Source of the DNA: an uncultured cyanobacterium
Lineage (GTDB): Bacteria; Cyanobacteriota; Cyanobacteriia; Leptolyngbyales; Leptolyngbyaceae
Assembly (NCBI GenBank): GCA_963766075.1
Contig: CAVYAN010000005.1
Span: 1 to 39,750, forward strand
Reading direction: 5' to 3'
Length of the DNA stretch: 39,750 nt
Numbering within the stretch: position 1 is the stretch's first letter; each line of letters opens with the position of its first letter. Both the position numbers and the translations under genes were made by a program. The notes below the pieces were generated by a model. That model was not told the DNA's origin. It searched no databases and saw only the letters and a list, made by a program, of their open reading frames with translations. Shown in pieces: positions 10,274-39,002 of this stretch.

Positions 10274-11130
10274 TACAACGTTTTTCAGGTAAATATGTCA
10301 CAGTCAAATAGCCGTAGATTAGTAGATAGCCATGAAACCTTACCCCATTGAATTGCGAGAAAGAATCATCACGATTTACGAAGCCGGGAACATCTCCATT
10401 CGGAAGCTAGCGGAGCGATTTGCTGTGAGCAAGGGGTTCGTGCAGAAAATGCTGAAACAACAGCAGGAAAAAGGCCACGTCAACCCTGGCAAGCAGGGCG
10501 GCCACATGAAAGGGGAACTCGATGGGCGCGAGGTGGATCTGGCGGCGATGGTGGAGCAGCATCTAGATGCAACCCTGGCCGAGTACTGTGAATATTGGGG
10601 AGAGCAATATGACCAATGGGTTAGTCCGAGCACTATGTGTCGAGCGCTGCAAAAAGCTCGACACACCCTAAAAAAAAAGACCTTACGCAGCACGCAAGCC
10701 GCGACCGAACGGGTGCAAAAACTGAGAGTTGAATACTGGGAAGCGGTGAAAGATATAGCGCCGGAGAATCTGATATTCCTCGATGAGATGGGGGTTTTAC
10801 TGGGTTTGACCCGCACCCATGGGCGTAGTTCGAATTGTGGACGGGAGCCGCAGTAGTAATGGATAATCTAGCGGCGCATAAAATGGCGGCGATTACACCG
10901 TTGATTGAAGCCGCTGGGGCTAGAGTCATTAATTTATCTCCTTATTCGCCAGAGTTTAATCCGATAGAGCTGTGGTGGTCACAACTGAAAGCTTTTCTGC
11001 GAACGTTTTCACCGACGACAACGCAGATGGTCGATACGCTGATTGGAACAGCACTCGATTTAGTGAATTCTGAGCATCTCCGTAACTGGTTTGCTAACTG
11101 TTGTTACTGTATCTCATAAACCTGAAACGT
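10274..11130 (+). mobile_element. IS630-family element, internally deleted, right end damaged
   Basis: Left end TA-CAACGTTTTTCAGGT at 10274. Only ACCTGAAACGT (11120-11130) remains of the right inverted repeat. A transposase lies inside. Confidence 0.85.
10332..11119 (+). pseudogene. IS630 transposase with an internal deletion and frameshift at ~10830
   Basis: N-terminal HTH (MKPYPIELRERI), A-run LKKK and IFLDEMG (first D), then an abrupt jump to LWTGAAVVMDN..LSPYSPEFNPIE. The segment normally between RTHGRS and VVMDN is missing. Confidence 0.85.
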
Positions 11131-11612: not shown

Positions 11613-12041
11613 ATGAAAATCCGATTGGAACGAAGATTGCCAAGTTGTCCTGCAACACTCCCATGCACAGTGTGCCGCCAACCCTTTGCCGTGAATTCGA
11701 TTCGCACGTTACTCTACAGTAATCACGGCTGGTTGAAGGGTGATGTTTGTCCACACTGCCTAAAGCTCAGCCCAGACAAGTTCAAACAACTCCTGTGGGC
11801 CCAATCCGCTCGTCTTCTGAATCCTCCCTCTCCAGGCCCATCCCAAACTCTATTGCGGCATCAAGAGTCCTTAGAATGCTTAGAACTCTCCCAGGAAGAC
11901 CTACACCGCCCGACGGGGTGGCAGTGGTGGCTGAAACGCTTGGCCATCTTTGCCCAGGAGTCCCAAGAGTTAGAAGCTACCCGTCTGGGGTTGAACTCTG
12001 CTAATTCCCCGCAGCGATCGCGCCTGGAAAAACTGTTATGA
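11613..12041 (+). CDS. Hypothetical protein with two CxxC pairs (putative Zn ribbon)
   Basis: 142-aa ORF with an ATG start, CTVC...GDVCPHC, filling an otherwise empty gap. Confidence 0.65.
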   Translation: MKIRLERRLPSCPATLPCTVCRQPFAVNSIRTLLYSNHGWLKGDVCPHCLKLSPDKFKQLLWAQSARLLNPPSPGPSQTLLRHQESLECLELSQEDLHRPTGWQWWLKRLAIFAQESQELEATRLGLNSANSPQRSRLEKLL

Positions 12042-12190: not shown

Positions 12191-12451
12191 CTAATGGGTA
12201 ATCATCCAGGGACGGCCATCGTTACAGCTTTTCGCGCGAGGTTTTTCGGGTTCGCGATCGCGCTTCACTAACTGGGGCTCCGGGTTTTCGCGCTTCAGCC
12301 GCATGGTGCCAGACAGTAGGGCAGGGGGCGAAAAAATCCGGCGTCCCGGCTCGTGGCAGGTTGGACAATGGGCAGGATTGCTCGATTCCACCAGCGATCG
12401 CCACAGGTCAAATACACCACAGGCATCACACCGAAATTCATAAAGGGGCAT
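12191..12451 (-). CDS. fmdB: FmdB-family zinc-ribbon regulatory protein
   Basis: MPLYEFRCDACG...CPTC...RRIFSPP...RPWMITH, directly downstream of the formamidase, with a GGAG SD. Confidence 0.9.
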   Translation of the reverse strand: MPLYEFRCDACGVFDLWRSLVESSNPAHCPTCHEPGRRIFSPPALLSGTMRLKRENPEPQLVKRDREPEKPRAKSCNDGRPWMITH

Positions 12452-12542: not shown

Positions 12543-13751
12543 CTAAACAGGCAGGATATTTTGATCGAAAATGGCCGTAGGAATGGCAATCGTACAGCAA
12601 GCATTCGGAACATCCACAATGCCGCTGATGCGGCCCTCCACGGGGGCACAGCTTAGCAACAAGTAAGCTTGTTCACCCGTAAATCCGAATTTCTTGAGGT
12701 ATTCAATCGCATTCAGACATGCACGACGGTAGGCAATATGGGCATCCATGAAATATTGCTTACCCGTGAATTCATCCACGGAAATTCCTTCAAATACCAG
12801 GTATTCCGAATAGTGAGGCTCAACCGGACCCGGCTTGAAAATCGGGTTGACCATGCCATATTTTTCCACTCCGCCCTTGATGATATCGACATGCAGGTCA
12901 ATAAAGCCTGACATTTCGATCGCACCACAGAAGGAAATTTCACCATCCCCCTGGGAGAAGTGAATATCGCCCATCGACAGTTTGGCGCCTTCCACATACA
13001 CCGGGAAGTAGATCCGGGTGCCGCGTGACAGGTTCTTGATATCACAGTTGCCGCCATGTTCGCGGGGGGGCACGGTACGGGCTGCTTCTGCGGCGACGCG
13101 ATCGTAGTCGGCTTTGTCCAACGTGCCCAAAATCGCATTGGTGGGATTTGGCAAAGCTGCCAGTACGGGCACCCCATCAATATTTATACCGGCTCCATAG
13201 GTGCGGCGATCGGGCTGGCTAGACATCAACTCCGCTTCCCGCTTGTTCCAGGCGGCTAGCAGGTCGTGGGAGGGCGCACAGCCAATCAACCCGGGATGGG
13301 TAATGCCTGCAAATTTGACACCGGGAATGTGTCGCGACGAAGTGTAAATCCCTTGAAAGTCCCAAATGGCCTTGGCAGCATTGGGAAAATGGTCGGTCAG
13401 AAACCCCCCACCATTTTTGTGATCAAAGATGCCGGTGAATCCCCATTCATCACCCTGGAGAGCGCCAATATCAACTAAATCCACGACCAAAATATCACCC
13501 GGTTCTGCACCATTGACCCAAATAGGACCGCTCAGTACATGAACAACGGATAGGTCAACATCTTTCACATCACTGGGATCATCATTATCTTTGATCTGAC
13601 CATCGGTCCAGTCTTTACACTCAATCCGAAAGACATCGCCCGGATTTACCGAGACGACAGCGGGAATGTCAGGGTGCCAGCGGTTATGACCGGGCAATTC
13701 CTGTTGATCCATGGGTTTGGTCAAATCGACTTTGAACAGAGTCTTAGGCAT
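12543..13751 (-). CDS. fmdA: Formamidase (acetamidase/formamidase FmdA family)
   Basis: HNRWHPDIP, ECKDWTDGQI, HPGLIGCAPS, RTVPPREHGGNCDIKNLSRG, GDIHFSQGDGEISFCGAIEM, GIVDVPNAC; GAGGAG SD. Confidence 0.96.
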   Translation of the reverse strand: MPKTLFKVDLTKPMDQQELPGHNRWHPDIPAVVSVNPGDVFRIECKDWTDGQIKDNDDPSDVKDVDLSVVHVLSGPIWVNGAEPGDILVVDLVDIGALQGDEWGFTGIFDHKNGGGFLTDHFPNAAKAIWDFQGIYTSSRHIPGVKFAGITHPGLIGCAPSHDLLAAWNKREAELMSSQPDRRTYGAGINIDGVPVLAALPNPTNAILGTLDKADYDRVAAEAARTVPPREHGGNCDIKNLSRGTRIYFPVYVEGAKLSMGDIHFSQGDGEISFCGAIEMSGFIDLHVDIIKGGVEKYGMVNPIFKPGPVEPHYSEYLVFEGISVDEFTGKQYFMDAHIAYRRACLNAIEYLKKFGFTGEQAYLLLSCAPVEGRISGIVDVPNACCTIAIPTAIFDQNILPV

Positions 13752-13847: not shown

Positions 13848-15491
13848 TCAAGCCGGTGCTGCCTTACAGGCATCGTGGCATTGGGCGTCGAGACTGCAAC
13901 AGAGTGAACAAATCGAGCCTTGATACACGGGGCAGTAGGCCATATCCTCGCGCTCGTATTCGTACTCGCAAATCGAACATTCGGTCAGCTCAGCAACCTC
14001 TGGGTTATCACGGAAATTGACATCTTCGCGAGCAATGTAGTATTTGCCCTTGGTGATCACCGCAATGATGGGGGATAGGATAAAGGAAATACCCAGAGCG
14101 ATAAACGTCGAAAATGCCTGAGCCGCTGGACCCATCAGCCCAAAAAAGGCAATTACAGAGATCACCGAACCCACAACCATGGAGCCAAACCCGACCGGAT
14201 TGAAGTCGTACAAATGAGCGCGTTTGAACTCAATGTAGGAGGGGCTTAAGCCTAAGGGTTTGTTGATCACCAAGTCCGCAACCAGGGCACCTACCCAGGC
14301 GATCGCCACGTTGGAATAGAAGCCCAAGACCCATAGCAGTACTGAAAACACACCCATCTCTTGCAAGGTCAGGGCGATGATCAGGTGAAACACCAGCCAA
14401 ACGACGCGACCGGGGTGGGCGTGGGTTAACCGAGAAAAGAAGTTCGACCAGGATAGCGAACCCGAGTAGGCGTTCGTAACGTTGATTTTGACTTGGGACA
14501 AGATCACGAAAACCGTTGCCAGGAACATGAATACGGCAGGGTCGGGGAAGATTTCCTTGAACCCTTCGATGTACATGTGAATCGGTTCGTTGGCTTTGGC
14601 AATATCGACGCCGTTTTTGACTGCGATCGCCGTGAAGAAGGCACCCGCCCACTGTTTCCACGCGCCCAAAATCACCCAACCCGGACCAGCGACCATGACC
14701 GCCGTCCACCATTTGCCCTTGTTTTGCTCCGTCAAATCCGGCATGAACCGCAGGTAATCAACCTGCTCTCCAATTTGAGCAATTAAGGAAAGTGCAACCC
14801 CAGCTCCGGTGGCACAGAGGAGAATGTCAAACCCGGAACCACTCGGAGAGGTTCCCCCAAAGCTAAACCAGGTAGACAACGCTGTTGGATCCTTGATCAA
14901 CACGGCAAACCAAGGCGCAAACATCCCCAACAACCAAATGGGTTGCGTCCACACCTGCAACTGGGCCAGCAGGGTCATGCCAAAGACCACCAGCGGGAAA
15001 ATCGCCACGGTACAGAGCAGATAGCCCCACATTAGGGGCAGACCGAAATAAATTTCGATTGCCTGGGCCATGATCGCCCCTTCTAGGGCAAAGAAAATGA
15101 AACAAAATGAGGCGTAAATTACCGATGTGAGGGTAGAGCCGATATACCCAAAGCCTGCGCCCCGGGTCAGCAAATCCATGTCAATGTTGTAACGGGCGGC
15201 GTAGTAGGAAATTGGAATCCCCGTGACAAAGATAATGACGGCGGCAATAAAGATTGCCCAGAAGGAGTTGGTGAATCCGGAACTGATGGCGATCGAACCC
15301 CCGATCGCAAAATCCGCGAGGTAGGAAATCCCCCCGAGAGCAGCGTTCGCTACCGTAAACTCAGACCATTTGCGAAATGAACGGGGCGCATAGCGAAGCG
15401 AATAGTCCTCTAGGGTTTCATTCACAACCCAAGAACTGTAATGGCGTTTTGATTTTTCTAATCGAGCACTAGCGGCTTCGGTTCTACTCAT
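13848..15491 (-). CDS. Purine-cytosine permease (NCS1)-like multi-TM transporter with C-terminal Cys-rich domain; putative amide/urea-type importer
   Basis: About 12-13 hydrophobic segments, ETLEDYSLRYAP, DMDLLTRGAGFGYIGST, QIGEQVDYLRF, KINVTNAYSGSL and an 8-Cys tail. ATG 15491 has a GAGG SD. Lies immediately upstream of fmdA. Confidence 0.85.
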   Translation of the reverse strand: MSRTEAASARLEKSKRHYSSWVVNETLEDYSLRYAPRSFRKWSEFTVANAALGGISYLADFAIGGSIAISSGFTNSFWAIFIAAVIIFVTGIPISYYAARYNIDMDLLTRGAGFGYIGSTLTSVIYASFCFIFFALEGAIMAQAIEIYFGLPLMWGYLLCTVAIFPLVVFGMTLLAQLQVWTQPIWLLGMFAPWFAVLIKDPTALSTWFSFGGTSPSGSGFDILLCATGAGVALSLIAQIGEQVDYLRFMPDLTEQNKGKWWTAVMVAGPGWVILGAWKQWAGAFFTAIAVKNGVDIAKANEPIHMYIEGFKEIFPDPAVFMFLATVFVILSQVKINVTNAYSGSLSWSNFFSRLTHAHPGRVVWLVFHLIIALTLQEMGVFSVLLWVLGFYSNVAIAWVGALVADLVINKPLGLSPSYIEFKRAHLYDFNPVGFGSMVVGSVISVIAFFGLMGPAAQAFSTFIALGISFILSPIIAVITKGKYYIAREDVNFRDNPEVAELTECSICEYEYEREDMAYCPVYQGSICSLCCSLDAQCHDACKAAPA

Positions 15492-15861: not shown

Positions 15862-15945
15862 GCTACGACTACGCTCAACCCTCATTGTCCCAGTGGGCTG
15901 AACGCTGTCGTAGCATTGCCCCAGTGGGCTGAGCGTAGTCGAAGC
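15862..15945. repeat. REP-like palindromic element with an internal 31-bp duplication
   Basis: Arms GCTACGACTACGCTCAACCC / GGGCTGAGCGTAGTCGAAGC (18/20 complementary). CATTGyCCCAGTGGGCTGA occurs at 15883 and 15914. Confidence 0.75.
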
Positions 15946-15972: not shown

Positions 15973-16437
15973 CTAATGGGAATGGTGTGAGGGATGGACA
16001 TGCGGCAGGATAATGTAAAGCTGGTCGGGCGTATTCTCTAAAGCTCTAACTTCTGCGGTGGCGGGGATGGGCATGCCCTCGGCGATTAACGTTTCTTTGG
16101 GATGGGCCAGGAGGTGAGACTTGAATCCGGCATCTTGGGAGGCTCGCAATAAAATGCGCGATCGCACCGCCCGTTGGGGATAGATTGATCCCAAGGACTC
16201 CTGCAACTGTTGCAGTTCCGTCTCCGTCATCAAGGGGAGTACGAAAAAAATCTGACCCGGTTGACTTTCTAAAACCGTCACCTGTTGCGATTCTGGAATG
16301 GGGATTGCCATATCCTGAAGAATGGCCTTGGGATTCACGAGCAATTGTGCCCGAAACTCCGGTTGATGGATGGCTTGGGCAATCACCTGGATGATCGATG
16401 GGGTGGGCGGTGGCAGAGTGGTCGATGGCATAGACAT
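15973..16437 (-). CDS. Protein of two tandem NHLP-leader / nitrile hydratase alpha-like repeats with a His-rich tail
   Basis: Repeat 1: VIAQAIHQPEFRAQLLVNPKAIL..IPIPESQQVTVLESQPGQIFFVLP. Repeat 2: ILLRASQDAGFKSHLLAHPKETL..MPIPATAEVRALENTPDQLYIILP. Ends HVHPSHHSH. Confidence 0.8.
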   Translation of the reverse strand: MSMPSTTLPPPTPSIIQVIAQAIHQPEFRAQLLVNPKAILQDMAIPIPESQQVTVLESQPGQIFFVLPLMTETELQQLQESLGSIYPQRAVRSRILLRASQDAGFKSHLLAHPKETLIAEGMPIPATAEVRALENTPDQLYIILPHVHPSHHSH

Positions 16438-16511: not shown

Positions 16512-17168
16512 TCAGGCGGGTTGTCTAAGGGCTGATATTTTGGGCTGTACCGGTTGCTCCGATGCTAAAATTTCTAGGGCTCTGAGGCGAACTTGATAGG
16601 TTTTCCAGCGCGATTTGTGGGTTGTTTCCTGGGCGAGATGGCATAGAACATCGTAAAGACTGTTGCAGGCGGACCGGAATGAATAGCCGAACTGGATTGC
16701 CAAGGCGATCGCTTGCTGATCCGCCGCTGCCGCCTCTCGGAGGCTTTGTTCACCGCGATGCCGCTGATACAGTTGATTGCCTGCTAATCCAGCAACGACC
16801 AAACCCAGGACGAGCAGAATAATATTCTGCGCGGCTACTTCGGTGAGTGAGAAGGCCAGCCCCCCAATCATTACAGGCATTTCCCAGGCAAAATGGTTAA
16901 CCGTGCGGTGTTGAATGCGGGCCACTTCGTGCCAAAACAGCAAGTCGCGTTGATGGGTGGGGAGCCTCCCCCAACTCACCCAATCGACTTGAATGGCAAA
17001 CTGCTGTTTGCCGATGCGCGCTGTCGTAATTAAGGCTGGATTGACATCGGGCGATCGCACGATTTTGATATTAGATAGCCGCATCTGGGATGCCCAGTCC
17101 AAGGGCAACAGTCCATCCAATCGCTGCACTTCATCAATTTCCGTCAACCATTTCGTTTGAGCCTTCAC
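16512..17168 (-). CDS. DUF3318-like cyanobacterial membrane protein
   Basis: EVQRLDGLLP, QRDLLFWHEVARIQ, two TM helices, AADQQAIALAIQFGYS, YQVRLRAL. GTG 17168 with GGAG SD chosen; alternative start TTG 17189. Confidence 0.75.
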   Translation of the reverse strand: MKAQTKWLTEIDEVQRLDGLLPLDWASQMRLSNIKIVRSPDVNPALITTARIGKQQFAIQVDWVSWGRLPTHQRDLLFWHEVARIQHRTVNHFAWEMPVMIGGLAFSLTEVAAQNIILLVLGLVVAGLAGNQLYQRHRGEQSLREAAAADQQAIALAIQFGYSFRSACNSLYDVLCHLAQETTHKSRWKTYQVRLRALEILASEQPVQPKISALRQPA

Positions 17169-17665
17169 AACTGAATATCTCCACTCCAAAGGGGATTAAA
17201 AGAATCGAATAAACTAATCATAGAAATCAATGAGAAACCTATCGAGAATCGGATTTCCCTGAAATCTGATTCAAGCAACAGGGTTAAAGCAATACGGTTT
17301 GAGAGCGATAACTGCAAACAACTGCTCCGCAGACTGCAAGCTCTTCAGACTCGTTTACAGGAAGACCAACCTGACCGATTCTTAAAGAGCGATAGAGCTG
17401 TTACCGATTTCCCAAGGCCTGTCTGCGTGTAAGCAGAAGGGGCTATGTGGATATGTGCAGGGTGAATATCTGCGTAGGCACCCAGCCCCCTGAAGCATGG
17501 GTGAAAAAGATAACTTATCGATAGCCAACCTTACTTCTGAGAAGCGTGCTTCCGAGAACCTTAGTTCCCGAGAACCTTAGCTCTTGAACACTGGATTGAT
17601 AGCAGAGGGTATGTAGTCGTCCGTGATTTGTAGCTGAATCATAGGGAATCGTTCTCTATGATTTT

Positions 17666-17708
17666 GTATACTGGTCTACAAATTAATTATTAACTGGTTA
17701 ACTATCTT
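17666..17708 (+). promoter_or_regulatory. Canonical NtcA-activated promoter: GTA-N8-TAC plus -10 box
   Basis: tttTGTA-TACTGGTC-TACAaat (GTA at 17666, TAC ending 17679), then 23 nt, then TATCTT (TAN3T) at 17703-17708, pointing to the sensor kinase gene. Confidence 0.8.
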
Positions 17709-17945: not shown

Positions 17946-20803
17946 ATGGCCATTCAGCCCAGCTCAAAAGTTGCTGAGGATCGGCGTAAATACAACACTT
18001 GGGTAGCCACGGAAACCCTCGAAGACTATGCGTTGCGATTTGCCCCCCAGTCTTTTCGGCGGTGGTCGGAGTGGACAGTGGCCAATACGGCGATCGGGGG
18101 ACTGTCGTTTTTGGCGTTGGAAGCCATTGGCGGCTCTATTACTATTCGTTACGGGTTTGCCAATTCCTTCTGGGCGATCGTCGTCGTGGGCCTGATCATT
18201 TTTCTGACAGGATTGCCGATCGCCTACTATGCCGCCAAGTACAACGTCGATATGGATTTGTTGACGCGGGGTGCAGGCTTTGGCTACATCGGCTCCACGA
18301 TTACATCCCTGATCTACGCCTCTTTTACCTTTATCTTCTTTGCTCTAGAATCCGCCATTATGGCGCAGGCGCTGGAATTGTATTTTCAGTTGCCGCTCCC
18401 CATCGGTTATGTCGTGTGTTCCCTGGTGATTATTCCCCTGGTGTTTTTTGGGGTGACTCTGATTAATCAATTGCAATTTTGGACCCAACCCATTTGGATT
18501 GGTCTGATGGTGCTGCCCTATCTCTGTATTTTGTACAAGCAGCCGGAAGCCGTTACCGACTGGCTCCACTTTGCCGGAGAGTCGGGGAGCGGCGCTAGAT
18601 TTGATCCCCTGTTGTTTGGGGAGGCGGCGACGATTTCCTTTTCCTTGATTGCCCAAATTGGAGAGCAGGTGGACTATCTGCGCTTTCTTCCCAATAAGCA
18701 GGCGAGCAACCGCCGCTCCTGGTGGTTAGCCCTGCTCTTGGCGGGTCCGGGCTGGATTCTTTTTGGCTGTGCTAAGCAATTGGGGGGTTCATTCTTGGCG
18801 ACCTTGGCCATCAGCCATGGGGTGAGCCTGGAAAAGGCAAAAGAGCCAACGCAAATGTATTTGGTGGGATTTGAGTATGTTTTTAGCAATCCGGCGGTGG
18901 TGCTGGCAGTCGTTACGCTGTTTGTCCTGATTTCGCAGATCAAAATTAACGTAACCAATGCCTATGCTGGGTCCTTGGCTTGGTCCAACTTCTTCTCGCG
19001 CCTGACCCACAGCCATCCAGGCCGGGTGGTATGGTTAGTCTTTAATGTGGCGATCGCCCTTCTACTTATGGAGCTCGGGGTGTTTGCTACCTTGGAGGCC
19101 GTGCTAGGACTCTATTCCAATGTGGCGATCGCGTGGGTCGGTACATTGGTGGCCGACCTAGTGATTAATAAACCCCTTGGCCTCAGCCCCCCCATATTGA
19201 GTTTAAGCGCGCCCACCTCTACCACATTAATCCGGTGGGGTTTGGCGCGATGGCGATCGCCTCCCTTGTTTCCATCCTGGCCTTCTGGGGCCTATTCGGG
19301 GAGATTCCCAAGGCCTTTGCCTCTTTTATTGCCCTCGGCTTAGCTTTGCTTCTGGCTCCAGCGATTGCCCTCCTGACCAAAGGTAAATATTATATTGCGC
19401 GGGCAGACACCTATTCGAGAACCCTATACAATGATCCCAACGAGCCTTCCACGCAGTGCAATATCTGTGAGCAAGTCTACGAACCCCCGGACATGCTCTA
19501 CTGCCCGGTCTATGCCAGTCCGATTTGTTCCCTTTGTTGCAGCTTGGATGCCTGTTGCCACGATGCCTGCAAAGTTGCCGTCGAACCTGTCGAAATTGCT
19601 GTGCCTCCCCACGATGCCCCCTCTGTGACTGCCGTTTCTACCCTATCGGGTGGGCGGGCATTTTCTTATCCAAATTTGTCCCATAAAGTTTCGCCCCAGT
19701 TCGGCAATCGCTTTCTCAGGTACCTCTGGGTGTTTATCTCCCTATCGGGAATTGCCGGAGCAGCCTTGGCCTTTGTGTATCATCAGCAGATGGTGGCGGC
19801 AGCAGCCCTGCCCTCGATCACCATCAAGCATTTGACAGCAACGCTGCTGGGAGCCTACGGCATTTTTCTAGTTCTGATTGGGATTGGGTCTTGGTGGTTG
19901 GTCCTGACCCAGGAAAGTCGGCAATTGGCCCAGGAAGAACTGGATCAGCGCAATCTGCAATTGCAGCAAGAGGTCCAGGAGCGGCTCTTAGCCGAGACGC
20001 AACTCCAGGAAAAAGCCCAACAGTTAGAGAAAACCCTCTTGGAATTGCAGCAGGCCGAGGCACAACTAATTCAAACCGAAAAAATGGCGGCCTTGGGGGG
20101 ACTCGTCGCCGGGATTGCCCACGAGATTAACACGCCGATCGGCATTGGGGTAACGGCGGCCTCTTTGTTGATGGAGAAAACCGAGGCATTTTCCGCCCTA
20201 TCTAAGACCGGGACCATGAAGCGATCGGACTTAGAAAGGTTCCTAGACATCGCGCAGCAAAGCAGTCGGATGGCCTTGACCAATCTGAATCGAGCCGCCG
20301 AGCTGATCCAAAGCTTCAAACAGGTGGCGGTCGATCAGTCCAGCGAGTCGAAGCGGGTTTTTAATGTCAAGCTGTACCTTGAGGAAATCTTGTTGCAGTT
20401 GAGTCCAAAGCTCAGGGCAACGCCCCATCATATTGTCGTTGAGTGCGATCGCAGCCTCACCTTCAACAGCTATCCTGGTGCCTTCTCGCAAATTGTCACC
20501 AATTTAGTGCTTAACTCCCTGCTGCATGCCTTTGCCCCCGATCAATCCGGCGCAATTACCTTGACAGCCCGCCGGAGCCACACCCACCTGCTCTTTGAAT
20601 ACGCCGACAATGGCTCTGGCATTGCCCCTCCGCACTTGGATAAAATTTTTGATCCCTTCTTCACCACCAAACGCGGCCAAGGCGGCAGTGGCCTCGGGCT
20701 ACACATCGTCTACAACCTTGTCACCCAAAAACTCGGCGGCACCATCCAATGCGAAAGTCAGCCCGGTCACGGCACCAAATTTATCATCACCCTTCCGTTC
20801 TAA
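17946..20803 (+). CDS. Histidine kinase with an N-terminal NCS1-like permease domain and Cys-rich domain (transceptor type); one-base frameshift at C7 run 19187-19193
   Basis: ORF 17946-19343 aligns by eye with the 13848-15491 permease up to INKPLGLSP. The other frame continues IEFKRAHLYHINPVGFG as in the paralogue, then the Cys domain, 2 TM, coiled coil, H-box GIAHEINTP, N-box NLVLNS, DNGSG, FDPFFTTK and GSGLGL. Confidence 0.9.
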
Positions 20804-20890
20804 TCCGACTCCATACCCTCCTAGAGTATTTTTAACAGCACTCCGTGCCGCTACGCTAGAGCATTTTTAGTTGTCCCCTTTCCCTGGCCC

Positions 20891-22039
20891 ATGACTCCCT
20901 TCCTGCCAGCAGATGATGACGATGAAATTCGGTTTGCTGCCGAGACGGAACCCAGCCCACCCGCAGCCAGTTGGAAGATTCTGATTGTGGATGATGAAGC
21001 GGAAGTCCACAGCATTACCCAACTGGCGCTGCGGGATGTCACTTTTGCAGGGCGATCGCTCAGCTTCATCAGCGCCTATTCGGCCCAGGAAGCCAAACAC
21101 CTGATTCAAGTCCACCCAGATACCGCCATTATTTTTCTGGATGTGGTGATGGAGAATGAAAGTGCGGGGCTGTATTTGGTTAAATACATTCGCGAGGAAT
21201 TAAATAATCCACTGGTCCGGATTATTTTGCGAACAGGACAGCCCGGTCAAGCCCCGGAAGAGGTGGTGGCGGTCAATTATGGCATTGACGACTACAAAAC
21301 TAAAACGGAACTGACCGCCCAGAAATTGGCGATCGCGGTGATCACAGCCCTGCGGGGTTTTTCGACCCTAATGCATTTGCTAGACGACAGTCGTCATCTA
21401 GAGTCGGAGCTGATCCAGCATAAACAGCGGGAAATTGAGCTGCGGATCAGTGAAATGAGTGCGATCGACAAAGTGCAGCAATTGGAGCAATCCTTGCAAT
21501 CCCTGCGGCAAACCCAACTGCAATGGCGCGACCGCCCCACGGGCCTTCGCCCCAGTCCCCTCAGCCAAAAAGTCACCGAAACCACTCAGGAACTGATTAA
21601 TCTCCCTGCCGCCACTGACAGCTTTCAAACGGTTTCCATCGTCACGCGGTTGGCCCGCATGGTCCTGCGGATCACCGATGAACATGCAGCACGGCTCGGA
21701 CTCTCGCAAACCAAACTGGCCGTGTTGATTTGCCTCAGCGGTGAAGCGGAACTCTGTGCCAGTCCTTCGGATTTGGCCAAGCATTGCGGGGTGTCCCGCG
21801 CCGCCATGACCGGACTTCTGGATGGCCTAGAGCAAGATGGGTATGTCGAACGCGACAGTCACCCCTCCGATCGCCGCGCTTTAATGATCAAACTCACTCC
21901 TAAAGGCCAGCAGTTTCTTGAATGGCTTACCCCCCAGGATCAGTATCAACTGTCGGAAGTGATGGATGCCCTCAGCGACGCCGAGCGTCAGAAGTTGATG
22001 GAATTAGCCCTCAAGTTGACTCAAATGTTCGCGGCATAG
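20891..22039 (+). CDS. Response regulator: REC domain, coiled coil, MarR-type wHTH
   Basis: KILIVDDE, IFLDVVME (phospho-Asp), ILRTGQPG and DDYKTK. The C-terminus has GLSQTKLAVL..SPSDLAKHCGVSRAAMTGLLDGLEQDGYVER..SDRR..LTPKG. Confidence 0.9.
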   Translation: MTPFLPADDDDEIRFAAETEPSPPAASWKILIVDDEAEVHSITQLALRDVTFAGRSLSFISAYSAQEAKHLIQVHPDTAIIFLDVVMENESAGLYLVKYIREELNNPLVRIILRTGQPGQAPEEVVAVNYGIDDYKTKTELTAQKLAIAVITALRGFSTLMHLLDDSRHLESELIQHKQREIELRISEMSAIDKVQQLEQSLQSLRQTQLQWRDRPTGLRPSPLSQKVTETTQELINLPAATDSFQTVSIVTRLARMVLRITDEHAARLGLSQTKLAVLICLSGEAELCASPSDLAKHCGVSRAAMTGLLDGLEQDGYVERDSHPSDRRALMIKLTPKGQQFLEWLTPQDQYQLSEVMDALSDAERQKLMELALKLTQMFAA

Positions 22040-37267: not shown

Positions 37268-37364
37268 AATGCACTGTGGGAAAGGAAATCCGAAAGTTGG
37301 GAATTACTTGGGATTATAGGCTGTAGCTTGAGATAATAGGGGATATTTGTTTCATGCTGAATTC

Positions 37365-39002
37365 ATGGCTGTTTCTCCTTTTGCGGCTGAGCGTTTGCTG
37401 TTTGACCCGGCCACACCGAGGGCGGATGCAGTGCCTGTTGTTTTTGCGTTTCCCAATGAGTACACGGTCGGCATTACCAGTTTGGGGTACCAAATTGTGT
37501 GGGCCACGTTGGCTCTGCGGCAGGATGTGCGGGTGAGTCGGTTGTTTACGGATGTGCAGGAGTCGTTGCCGGAAGCGCCGGAACTGTTGGGATTTTCGGT
37601 GTCGTGGGAGTTGGATTATGTGAATGTATTGGGCTTGCTGGAGCGTTTGGATGTGCCCTTGCGGGCGGGCGATCGCACATCCTCCCATCCCCTAGTGTTT
37701 GGCGGTGGCCCCGTACTGACGGCGAATCCCGAACCCTTTGCGGATTTCTTTGATGTGATTTTACTGGGGGATGGCGAGCTGCTGCTGGGAGAATTTATCA
37801 CGGCCTATCATGCTGTGCGGCAGGCCGATCGCGCCACGCAACTGCGGCATTTGGCCCAGGTGCCGGGGATTTACATTCCCAGTTTGTATGCGGTTACCTA
37901 TGCCAGTGCCGAGGGGGCGATCGCGGCGATTGTGCCCGTGAATGCCACTATTCCGGTCCAGGTCCAAAAACAGACCTATCGGGGCAATGTGCTCTCTGCC
38001 TCCACGGTGGTGACGGAAAAGGCCGCCTGGGAAAATATTTTCATGGTGGAGGTGGTCCGAAGTTGTCCGGAAATGTGTCGGTTTTGCCTCGCGAGCTATC
38101 TGACGCTGCCGTTTCGGGCGGCCAGTATGGAGCAGTCCTTAATCCCCGCGATTCAGCAGGGCCTGAAAGTCACCGATCGCCTGGGTTTTTTGGGGGCTTC
38201 GGTCACACAGCATCCAGAGTTTGAAACCTTGTTGGAGTACATCAATCGTCCGGAATACGATCAGGTTCGCCTCAGTTTATCGTCCGTTCGTACCAACACC
38301 GTCACCCCACAGCTCGCCCAAACCTTGGTGAAGCATGACAGTCGATCGATCACCATTGCGGTGGAAAGCGGCAGCGATCGCCTACGGCAGATTGTCAACA
38401 AAAAACTCACCAATGACGAAATTATCCAAGCGGGCATCAACGCCAAAGCGGGCGGACTCAGTGCTCTAAAACTCTACGGCATGGTGGGCCTTCCCGGTGA
38501 GGCCCCGGAAGATGCCGAGGCAACCGTCTCAATGATGAAATCCCTCAAGAAAGCCGCCCCTGGTTTGCGCCTAACCCTCGGATGCAGCACCTTTGTGCCC
38601 AAGGCGCACACGCCCTTTCAATGGTTTGGGGTGAATCCAGAGGCCGAAAAACGTTTGCAGGGCTTGCAGAAGCAATTGCGATCGCAGGGCATGGATTTTC
38701 GTCCGGAAAGCTATAGCTGGTCGGTGATTCAAGCCTTGATTTCCCGAGGCGATTGCCGCCTGTCCCCCCTGCTGGAACTGACACGCCACTATGGGGACTC
38801 TCTGGGCAGCTATCGCCGCGCCTTTAAAGAACTGCGGGGGACATTGCCACCCTTGGAATTCTACGTGCATGATACCTGGCACCCTGACCAGGTACTGCCG
38901 TGGAGCCATTTACAAGGTCCCTTGCCGGATAGTACCTTGCTGAAGCATTTGGCCAGCGCCATGGAGCACTTCCCTACGCCGACCCCCGTATCGGTCAGCT
39001 AA
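37365..39002 (+). CDS. B12-binding-like domain radical SAM protein
   Basis: FPNEY..GITSLGYQ, GGGP..TANPEP, EVVRSCPEMCRFC (CxxxCxxC), AVESGSDRLR, KLYGMVGLPGE, FVPKAHTPFQW. Confidence 0.9.
   Translation: MAVSPFAAERLLFDPATPRADAVPVVFAFPNEYTVGITSLGYQIVWATLALRQDVRVSRLFTDVQESLPEAPELLGFSVSWELDYVNVLGLLERLDVPLRAGDRTSSHPLVFGGGPVLTANPEPFADFFDVILLGDGELLLGEFITAYHAVRQADRATQLRHLAQVPGIYIPSLYAVTYASAEGAIAAIVPVNATIPVQVQKQTYRGNVLSASTVVTEKAAWENIFMVEVVRSCPEMCRFCLASYLTLPFRAASMEQSLIPAIQQGLKVTDRLGFLGASVTQHPEFETLLEYINRPEYDQVRLSLSSVRTNTVTPQLAQTLVKHDSRSITIAVESGSDRLRQIVNKKLTNDEIIQAGINAKAGGLSALKLYGMVGLPGEAPEDAEATVSMMKSLKKAAPGLRLTLGCSTFVPKAHTPFQWFGVNPEAEKRLQGLQKQLRSQGMDFRPESYSWSVIQALISRGDCRLSPLLELTRHYGDSLGSYRRAFKELRGTLPPLEFYVHDTWHPDQVLPWSHLQGPLPDSTLLKHLASAMEHFPTPTPVSVS

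Follow-up and report, generated by a model that had tools for sequence, protein, structure and literature searches.

Precursors of the NHLP (proteusin) type, which are recognized by the TIGR03793 model and represented by the entries 8TB1 and 9CJX, are defined by the presence of a Gly-Gly motif together with a core that varies (Haft et al. 2010, PMC2887384), and their leaders have been portrayed as rigid folds that bind to enzymes through contacts between the proteins (PMC12537861). The NHLP-Burk group (TIGR03795), as described by Haft et al., comprises tandem pairs and fusions that in some species place two NHLP-type units on one polypeptide; these are found near cyclodehydratases and have Cys termini (PMC2887384). 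As presented in the sources cited, PalX (PMC10853753) and Os1348 (PMC7726476; 6LK7) belong to the NHLP clan, possess a short or unclear core and no classic Gly-Gly core, and are single-domain proteins encoded beside modifying enzymes. Two repeats of the same fold are also present in the alpha subunit of nitrile hydratase (NHase) and the gamma subunit of thiocyanate hydrolase (TIGR01323 and TIGR03887). The pocket of NHase is formed together with its beta subunit.

The DNA studied here, which we refer to as the window, is a stretch of 39,750 nucleotides from an uncultured cyanobacterium. It encodes a core-less protein with two NHLP leader repeats (the double-NHLP protein; Table 1), which is probably a functional, non-RiPP member of the formamidase cluster that surrounds its gene.

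Table 1. Features of the formamidase cluster and its surroundings; positions are those of the window.
Feature	Position	Strand	Remarks
CxxC...CxxC protein	11613..12041	(+)	142 aa, no known family; convergent on the cluster
FmdB zinc-ribbon protein	12191..12451	(-)	TIGR02605; behind fmdA
Formamidase FmdA	12543..13751	(-)	NF045496, 667.5 bits (cut-off 500)
Stand-alone permease	13848..15491	(-)	Cys-rich C-terminus; NCS1/cytosine-permease-like, via a weak match of a paralogue
Core-less double-NHLP protein	15973..16437	(-)	154 aa; ORF call, TIGR03793
His tail HVHPSHHSH	15976..16002	(-)	occupies the place of cleavage site and core
NHLP repeat 2	16003..16173	(-)	residues 89-145; C-terminal end YIILP
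NHLP repeat 1	16234..16398	(-)	residues 14-68; C-terminal end FFVLP
DUF3318 paralogue	16512..17189	(-)	second DUF3318 copy; predicted membrane protein; Pfam PF11780
Predicted NtcA-activated promoter	17638..17679	(-)	GTA-N8-TAC at 17666-17679, TATGAT 22 nt downstream
Divergent permease-histidine-kinase fusion and response regulator with MarR domain	17946..22039	(+)	

The TIGR03793 model matches the double-NHLP protein in two stretches with 97.5 bits (cut-off 50.9), and the scores obtained with the models for NHase alpha (TIGR01323; 38.5 bits, cut-off 249.85) and NHLP-Burk (TIGR03795; 19.4 bits, cut-off 41) lie far below and below their respective cut-offs. The two halves of the protein align with each other (33% over 52 amino acids, E 2e-11), the second repeat is devoid of the ELSD..GG segment of true leaders, and the helical linker that follows the first repeat carries the family-specific residues T71, L78, R89 and R92. 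There is neither a Cys residue nor a Gly-Gly pair in the polypeptide, which ends in LPHVHPSHHSH, and an AGGA sequence is located 6 nt upstream of the first ATG of its gene. The anatomy put forward in the original prediction (two leader repeats, no Cys, no Gly-Gly, no core, a His tail) is thereby borne out, and so is its statement that the window holds no NHase beta subunit and no RiPP enzymes: Pfam searches of the 31 window ORFs found no NHase beta, YcaO, LanM or C39 peptidase family and no RiPP modifier or exporter family, and the related loci were compared by tblastn with the window genes and by ORF inspection. An AlphaFold2 model based on a 105-row alignment (pLDDT 91, pTM 0.80) predicts three helices and two strands for each repeat with a helical linker in between, and the sequence is 40% identical to 8TB1 across 60 aligned residues. 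The best score of a Protein Atlas search (0.78) carries no information, and the fact that fused, longer forms were found in 0 of 7993 candidates is weak evidence.

Protein searches yielded 58 orthologues, a set that omits partial-length matches and one distant match (P0210). Together with the ratios of non-synonymous to synonymous substitution given below and the high confidence of the structural model, they establish the reading frame as real and not as a chance occurrence. Gly-Gly is present in none of the 58 proteins, 53 contain no Cys, and no hypervariable core rich in Cys, Ser and Thr was found in the place where it would be expected; the tails that follow the last Pro are His-rich and 3 to 20 residues long. 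Judged by its sequences, the family lacks both the Gly-Gly motif and the variable core by which NHLP precursors are defined. It shares with them the leader domain, matched twice in the double-NHLP protein, and differs from them not only by the missing ELSD..GG segment and core but also by an invariant terminal His and by a locus that contains a formamidase cluster instead of a modifying enzyme or exporter. Unlike the single-domain PalX and Os1348, the double-NHLP protein is built of two domains, and an active modifier is not recognisable beside it.

Several positions set the family apart. In 58/58 orthologues a His lies no more than five residues from the last Pro, at the end of repeat 2, as is the case in only 5/81 other double-NHLP proteins, and the residues Q51, R89 and R92, invariant throughout the 58 orthologues, occur in 5, 4 and 2, respectively, of the same 81 proteins. 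Their invariance within the family and rarity outside of it suggest a new binding surface. The dN/dS ratios range from 0.09 to 0.28 in six unsaturated pairs of orthologues, and by this sequence-based measure the family is under purifying selection. These data bear on the reading that the gene is a decayed precursor, or an in-trans leader for other RiPP genes, that is carried along by chance. The name that NCBI attaches to family members ('NHLP leader peptide family RiPP precursor') would agree with such an origin, as would the split gene copy in genome G043; however, four neighbouring genes are split in G043 as well, which points to assembly errors, and purifying selection, invariant residues and fixed gene neighbours all run counter to decay. 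Since the dN/dS values and the synteny already largely refute this reading, we consider it hardly credible. A search for other TIGR03793 genes retrieved nothing besides NHase alpha in 9/9 carriers searched, and a leader acting in trans was rejected on these grounds. The original prediction had named orthologues with GG-core peptides or a location in RiPP clusters as the marks of a decayed precursor; what was found are 58 proteins without Gly-Gly, low dN/dS ratios, and orthologues that follow the formamidase cluster and not RiPP clusters.

The two-repeat layout was originally taken to resemble complete NHase alpha and to hint at an evolutionary connection. This argument loses its force, as tandem repeats are common in ordinary precursors: in a representative library, at least two repeats were present in 144 of the best 150 hits, 68 of these 144 proteins possess a Gly-Gly-type site downstream of their final repeat according to a strict pattern, and the CxLCSC motif occurs in none of the best 150. 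Since the library was queried with a two-repeat profile, these numbers establish that the layout is widespread but give no measure of its frequency. Multi-leader NHLP precursors appear to be common, and up to four leader repeats were seen in P0019, P0021, P0023, P0028 and others, several of which precede a single Gly-Gly core. Other core-less double-NHLP proteins exist that are without the terminal His (P0138, P0147, P0150).

The closeness to NHase alpha that the layout seemed to imply was not upheld by comparisons of the repeats either. Those of the double-NHLP family share a mean identity of 28-32% with the repeats of 131 such multi-repeat proteins and of 20-26% with those of NHase alpha (15 cyanobacterial proteins), and the linker is 35 residues long in 24/24 orthologues, as compared with a median of 34 (range 1-82) in the 131 others and 21 in 15/15 NHase alphas. 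Both family repeats have a leader-type first helix and an LP end, unlike NHase alpha, whose first repeat ends in the Cys motif and whose second repeat is without a leader-type first helix. Repeat identity and linker length fit an origin from double-leader precursors better than one from NHase alpha, and the truncation of a double-leader RiPP precursor is, from the sequences, likely the simpler reading of how the family arose. Its closest relatives by identity are uncharacterised double-leader precursors such as P0020, P0030, P0036 and G260:C4, which also have two repeats and a linker of similar length; they retain Gly-Gly and a variable core, whereas the family stops 3-20 residues past the last Pro.

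Superposition of the predicted structure gave a divided answer. NHase alpha is the best structural match of the model, and 127 residues spanning the two repeats can be superposed (Z 9.0), yet the rmsd amounts to 6.7 Å; a separate superposition gave a TM of about 0.53 and an rmsd of 7.6 Å. Apart from this deviation near 7 Å, the double-NHLP protein differs from NHase alpha in the missing CxLCSC motif, the missing beta partner and the 35- rather than 21-residue linker. A phylogenetic tree calculated from 111 columns, with 13 orthologues, 15 NHase alphas and a subset of 50 from the 131 other proteins, recovered the double-NHLP family as one clade (support 100/99) that is not joined to NHase alpha; a tree of single repeats gave no resolution. 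When a joint clade with NHase alpha was enforced, it was not rejected on these 111 columns (AU p 0.24), a result that would accommodate the reading of the double-NHLP protein as a binder of nitriles or amides that either descends from NHase alpha and has no Cys or stands midway between NHase alpha and RiPP leaders. The shared two-repeat layout, the structural match over both repeats and the adjacency of fmdA and NHase genes in G044 and G072 can also be cited in its favour; we nevertheless regard it as very improbable in view of the lower repeat identity, the different linker, the leader-type first helix and LP end of both repeats, the topology of the best tree, and a beta subunit that does not travel with the double-NHLP gene (no match to NHase beta in the ORF lists of nine double-NHLP loci). 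The genome under study does encode a complete NHase (beta, alpha, accessory protein and CobW-like GTPase), on a separate contig (G000:C75:13900-15700). NHase alpha is present in 17/121 cyanobacterial genomes, in 2/8 double-NHLP carriers among these and probably in one of three further carriers; with 3/11 carriers there is no enrichment, and a role of the double-NHLP protein as an NHase accessory factor was rejected.

The double-NHLP gene was found in 11/90 genomes of one cyanobacterial order, with a patchy distribution over six genera, and in none of 400 further genomes of the phylum, in which two weak matches turned out to be ordinary Gly-Gly precursors; relatives with titled records are from cyanobacteria. 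Its neighbourhood was compared in 15 loci (11 genomes, one titled contig and three metagenome contigs, including two near copies). A DUF3318 paralogue adjoins the gene in 15/15 loci and lies upstream of it in 14, and the stand-alone permease gene is located within 7 kb in 13/15, the contigs of the other two being short. The location beside an amidase operon that had been noted at the outset is correct for the window, where fmdA is followed by the gene for the FmdB zinc-ribbon protein, and fmdA lies within the double-NHLP locus in 9/15 loci and 7/11 carrier genomes; the CxxC...CxxC protein is encoded in 8/15. In some genomic location, fmdA is present in 11/11 carriers, as compared with 43/121 genomes overall. 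Among these 121 genomes, eight harbour the double-NHLP gene and all of them possess fmdA, as do the three carriers outside this set. The stand-alone permease is even more restricted (9/121 genomes); the eight carriers are all included, so that none has the double-NHLP gene without it. Since the carriers are kin, these counts lack independence and are presented without a test statistic. Genome G090 possesses the DUF3318 paralogue, the permease and fmdA, yet lacks the double-NHLP gene, and together with 35 of the 43 fmdA-containing genomes it indicates that this gene is dispensable for formamidase. From these co-occurrence counts, the DUF3318 paralogue and the permease are the genes that the double-NHLP gene follows most closely, and its connection with formamidase (fmdA) runs via these two; neither NHase nor RiPP machinery shows such a link.

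Further features in and around the cluster are short direct and inverted repeats at 15862-15945, between the double-NHLP and permease genes, which have about 20 similar stretches in the genome and lengthen a gap that is far shorter in most relatives, and an IS630-type transposase in two ORFs at 10332-11119 (+), beside the cluster. A B12/radical-SAM protein is encoded at 37347-39002, 21 kb from the double-NHLP ORF.

A canonical NtcA-activated promoter consists of a GTAN8TAC box and a -10 box of the TAN3T type about 22 nt downstream (PMC3898017). The predicted counterpart in the window occupies the region that separates the DUF3318 paralogue from the divergent permease-kinase gene and is oriented towards DUF3318 paralogue, double-NHLP protein, permease and fmdA, in this order; a second -10-like hexamer at 17703-17708 faces the opposite direction. 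By itself the NtcA pattern is at chance level in the window (two found, 2.3 expected), and therefore its conservation is what counts. In the genome as a whole, a -10 element accompanies 24 of 389 NtcA-type boxes on either side and a single one on both sides. Box and -10 at 22 nt in the direction of the DUF3318 gene are found in 8/15 regions (relatives and window), and GTA, TAC and TATGAT are invariant in the alignment of these eight; one of them comes from G021, a genome in which the double-NHLP gene was not detected, and stems from a contig that ends inside the DUF3318 gene. The exact NtcA box is absent from 3/15 regions and stands without a gene-ward -10 in three more, and the region between the two permease genes of G043 has NtcA boxes with a -10 at 21 nt. 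In terms of sequence, the cluster is thus preceded by a conserved promoter motif of the NtcA class II type, and this conservation in 8/15 regions predicts that the cluster is induced under nitrogen limitation. Scans for sigma-70 promoters and terminators gave results at chance level.

The NCS1-like permease with its Cys-rich C-terminal domain, for which searches retrieved no Pfam family and no solved relative by sequence, exists both as a stand-alone protein and as part of a fusion with a histidine kinase. In G030, G052 and G061 this fusion, a candidate transporter-derived amide sensor, is encoded together with fmdA, an ABC transporter and a second amidase. A single ORF of about 930-940 amino acids specifies it in relatives; in the window a frameshift within a C homopolymer near position 19190 breaks its gene (17946-20803), which reflects either a pseudogene or an assembly error.

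Taken together, we tentatively suggest that the double-NHLP protein is a core-less double leader with a metal-binding His and functions, without catalysis of its own, as an accessory subunit in an amide-uptake module whose induction by NtcA is predicted, a reading to which we assign a probability of roughly 0.45. A double-leader RiPP precursor would have lost everything past the last Pro of its second leader; nitrogen limitation would induce the DUF3318 paralogue, the double-NHLP protein, the permease and formamidase together via NtcA; the permease would import formamide or a related compound for subsequent use by FmdA; and the double-NHLP protein would dock, in the manner of structured NHLP leaders on RiPP enzymes, through its family-specific residues on a membrane neighbour, either the DUF3318 paralogue or the permease, and its terminal His may bind a metal ion. 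Against this proposal stand the gene content of G090 and of the 35/43 fmdA genomes that lack the gene, the location of fmdA outside of the locus in 4/11 carriers, the six promoter regions without an exact NtcA box or a gene-ward -10, the six of 58 tails in which only one His is present, not enough for storage, and the tree, which does not prove descent from precursors.

The putative membrane partner belongs to a family that is found in 115/121 genomes, mostly as a single copy; the core copy of the genome under study is located at G000:C67:11237-11809, and the term DUF3318 occurred in no paper found by our literature search. The model of the paralogue (pLDDT 85) is mostly helical and suggests a gluzincin/M48-like fold, with structural matches to BepA (Z 10.2, rmsd 3.9 over 142 aligned residues), ZMPSTE24 (Z 8.9), Ste24 (8.5) and BlaR1 (8.3). 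As the model is mostly helical and Foldseek retrieved no match at E <= 0.001, the gluzincin assignment should be taken as a lead. Both the paralogue and the core copies carry HExxR, a degenerate zinc motif that is changed further to HQxxR or YExxR in two paralogues, so that the DUF3318 paralogue is, as far as the model and this motif go, likely a pseudo-peptidase. A complex prediction for the double-NHLP protein and the DUF3318 paralogue scored 0.05 against a mark of 0.32 and speaks neither for nor against binding. In G005, the DUF3318 paralogue (L020:5522-6181) has an internal stop, and the double-NHLP gene is intact there.

A constant neighbour with a predicted peptidase-like fold would also suit a genuine precursor that has no Gly-Gly site and whose core is very short and His-rich; the DUF3318 paralogue would process it into a signal or metal-binding peptide. 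There are precedents for parts of this scheme, as PalX is described as an NHLP precursor whose C-terminal core comprises 8 residues and which is encoded beside a histidine kinase (PMC10853753), and HEXXH enzymes are reported to be active in RiPP pathways (PMC12636437). However, the degenerate motif of the DUF3318 proteins and a tail that can be as short as three residues, attached directly to the last strand, speak against it. The NHLP exporter TIGR03796 is present in 3/8 carriers as compared with 42/121 genomes overall (an NHLP-type exporter is encoded on contig C22 of the genome under study), and YcaO and LanM were not found in that genome, which is 85% complete; the LanM control matched nowhere. 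We therefore consider a short-core precursor decidedly improbable, and return to the accessory-subunit proposal.

The terminal His also invites another interpretation. His-rich tails bind metal in UreE, HypB and SlyD, and the double-NHLP protein might be a free metal chaperone or buffer whose tail brings Zn, Ni or Co to metal sites of the cluster, with the NHLP fold as a mere scaffold. Its proposed clients would be the FmdB zinc ribbon, the Cys-rich tail of the permease, the CxxC protein and possibly FmdA, which matches the sequence of structure 2WKN, an FmdA-family structure that we take to hold a metal site. The tails have at least two His in 52/58 orthologues and at least three in 37/58, and CxxC-type motifs are present in three neighbours, as a chaperone would have it; yet in several members the tail has shrunk to x-x-His. 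Moreover, 35/43 fmdA genomes and G090 manage without the gene, and there is no link to the cobalt enzyme NHase (3/11 carriers). A chaperone function is, in our estimate, unlikely, and a metal-binding role within the accessory subunit, as judged from the conserved His, is plausible.

A whole family that falls outside the definition of a precursor and is yet kept in a nitrogen-scavenging cluster makes it likely that leader domains are used outside of natural-product synthesis. A bolder reading, which we consider rather doubtful, is that RiPP leader domains were recruited for primary metabolism: after the loss of its core, a double leader would have gained the invariant terminal His and the new Arg/Gln surface residues, and the resulting protein, the DUF3318 pseudo-peptidase and the NCS1-like permease would form a module under NtcA control by which amide uptake is gated or sensed in dependence on metal. 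If true, an evolutionary route that began with an enzyme subunit and led to the RiPP leader would here have returned to a metabolic accessory protein, and the near-universal DUF3318 of cyanobacteria would become accessible to functional study for the first time, a copy of which the predicted promoter would tie to nitrogen control. Parallels for a re-use of NHLP domains outside of RiPP synthesis are offered by double NHLP domains fused to STAS (P0033, P0166, P0157), with an additional Trans_reg_C DNA-binding domain in two of the three; these are probable signalling proteins. No published description of the double-NHLP family was retrieved by a literature search of openly accessible main texts. 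Its narrow range limits the impact of these findings; the protein itself is small, soluble and confidently predicted, and has few candidate partners. It should be noted that automatic annotation labels NHLP matches as RiPP precursors, a name that members of the double-NHLP family bear as well.

Among the proteins related to NHase alpha, the comparison also brought up a 344-amino-acid NHase-alpha-like protein (L032:3225-4259; G026:C217) with insertions and a CTVCSC motif, whose gene is followed by a divergent beta-like gene. By eye, its long N-terminal extension resembles a twin-arginine signal, and from its sequence this protein is possibly an exported NHase.
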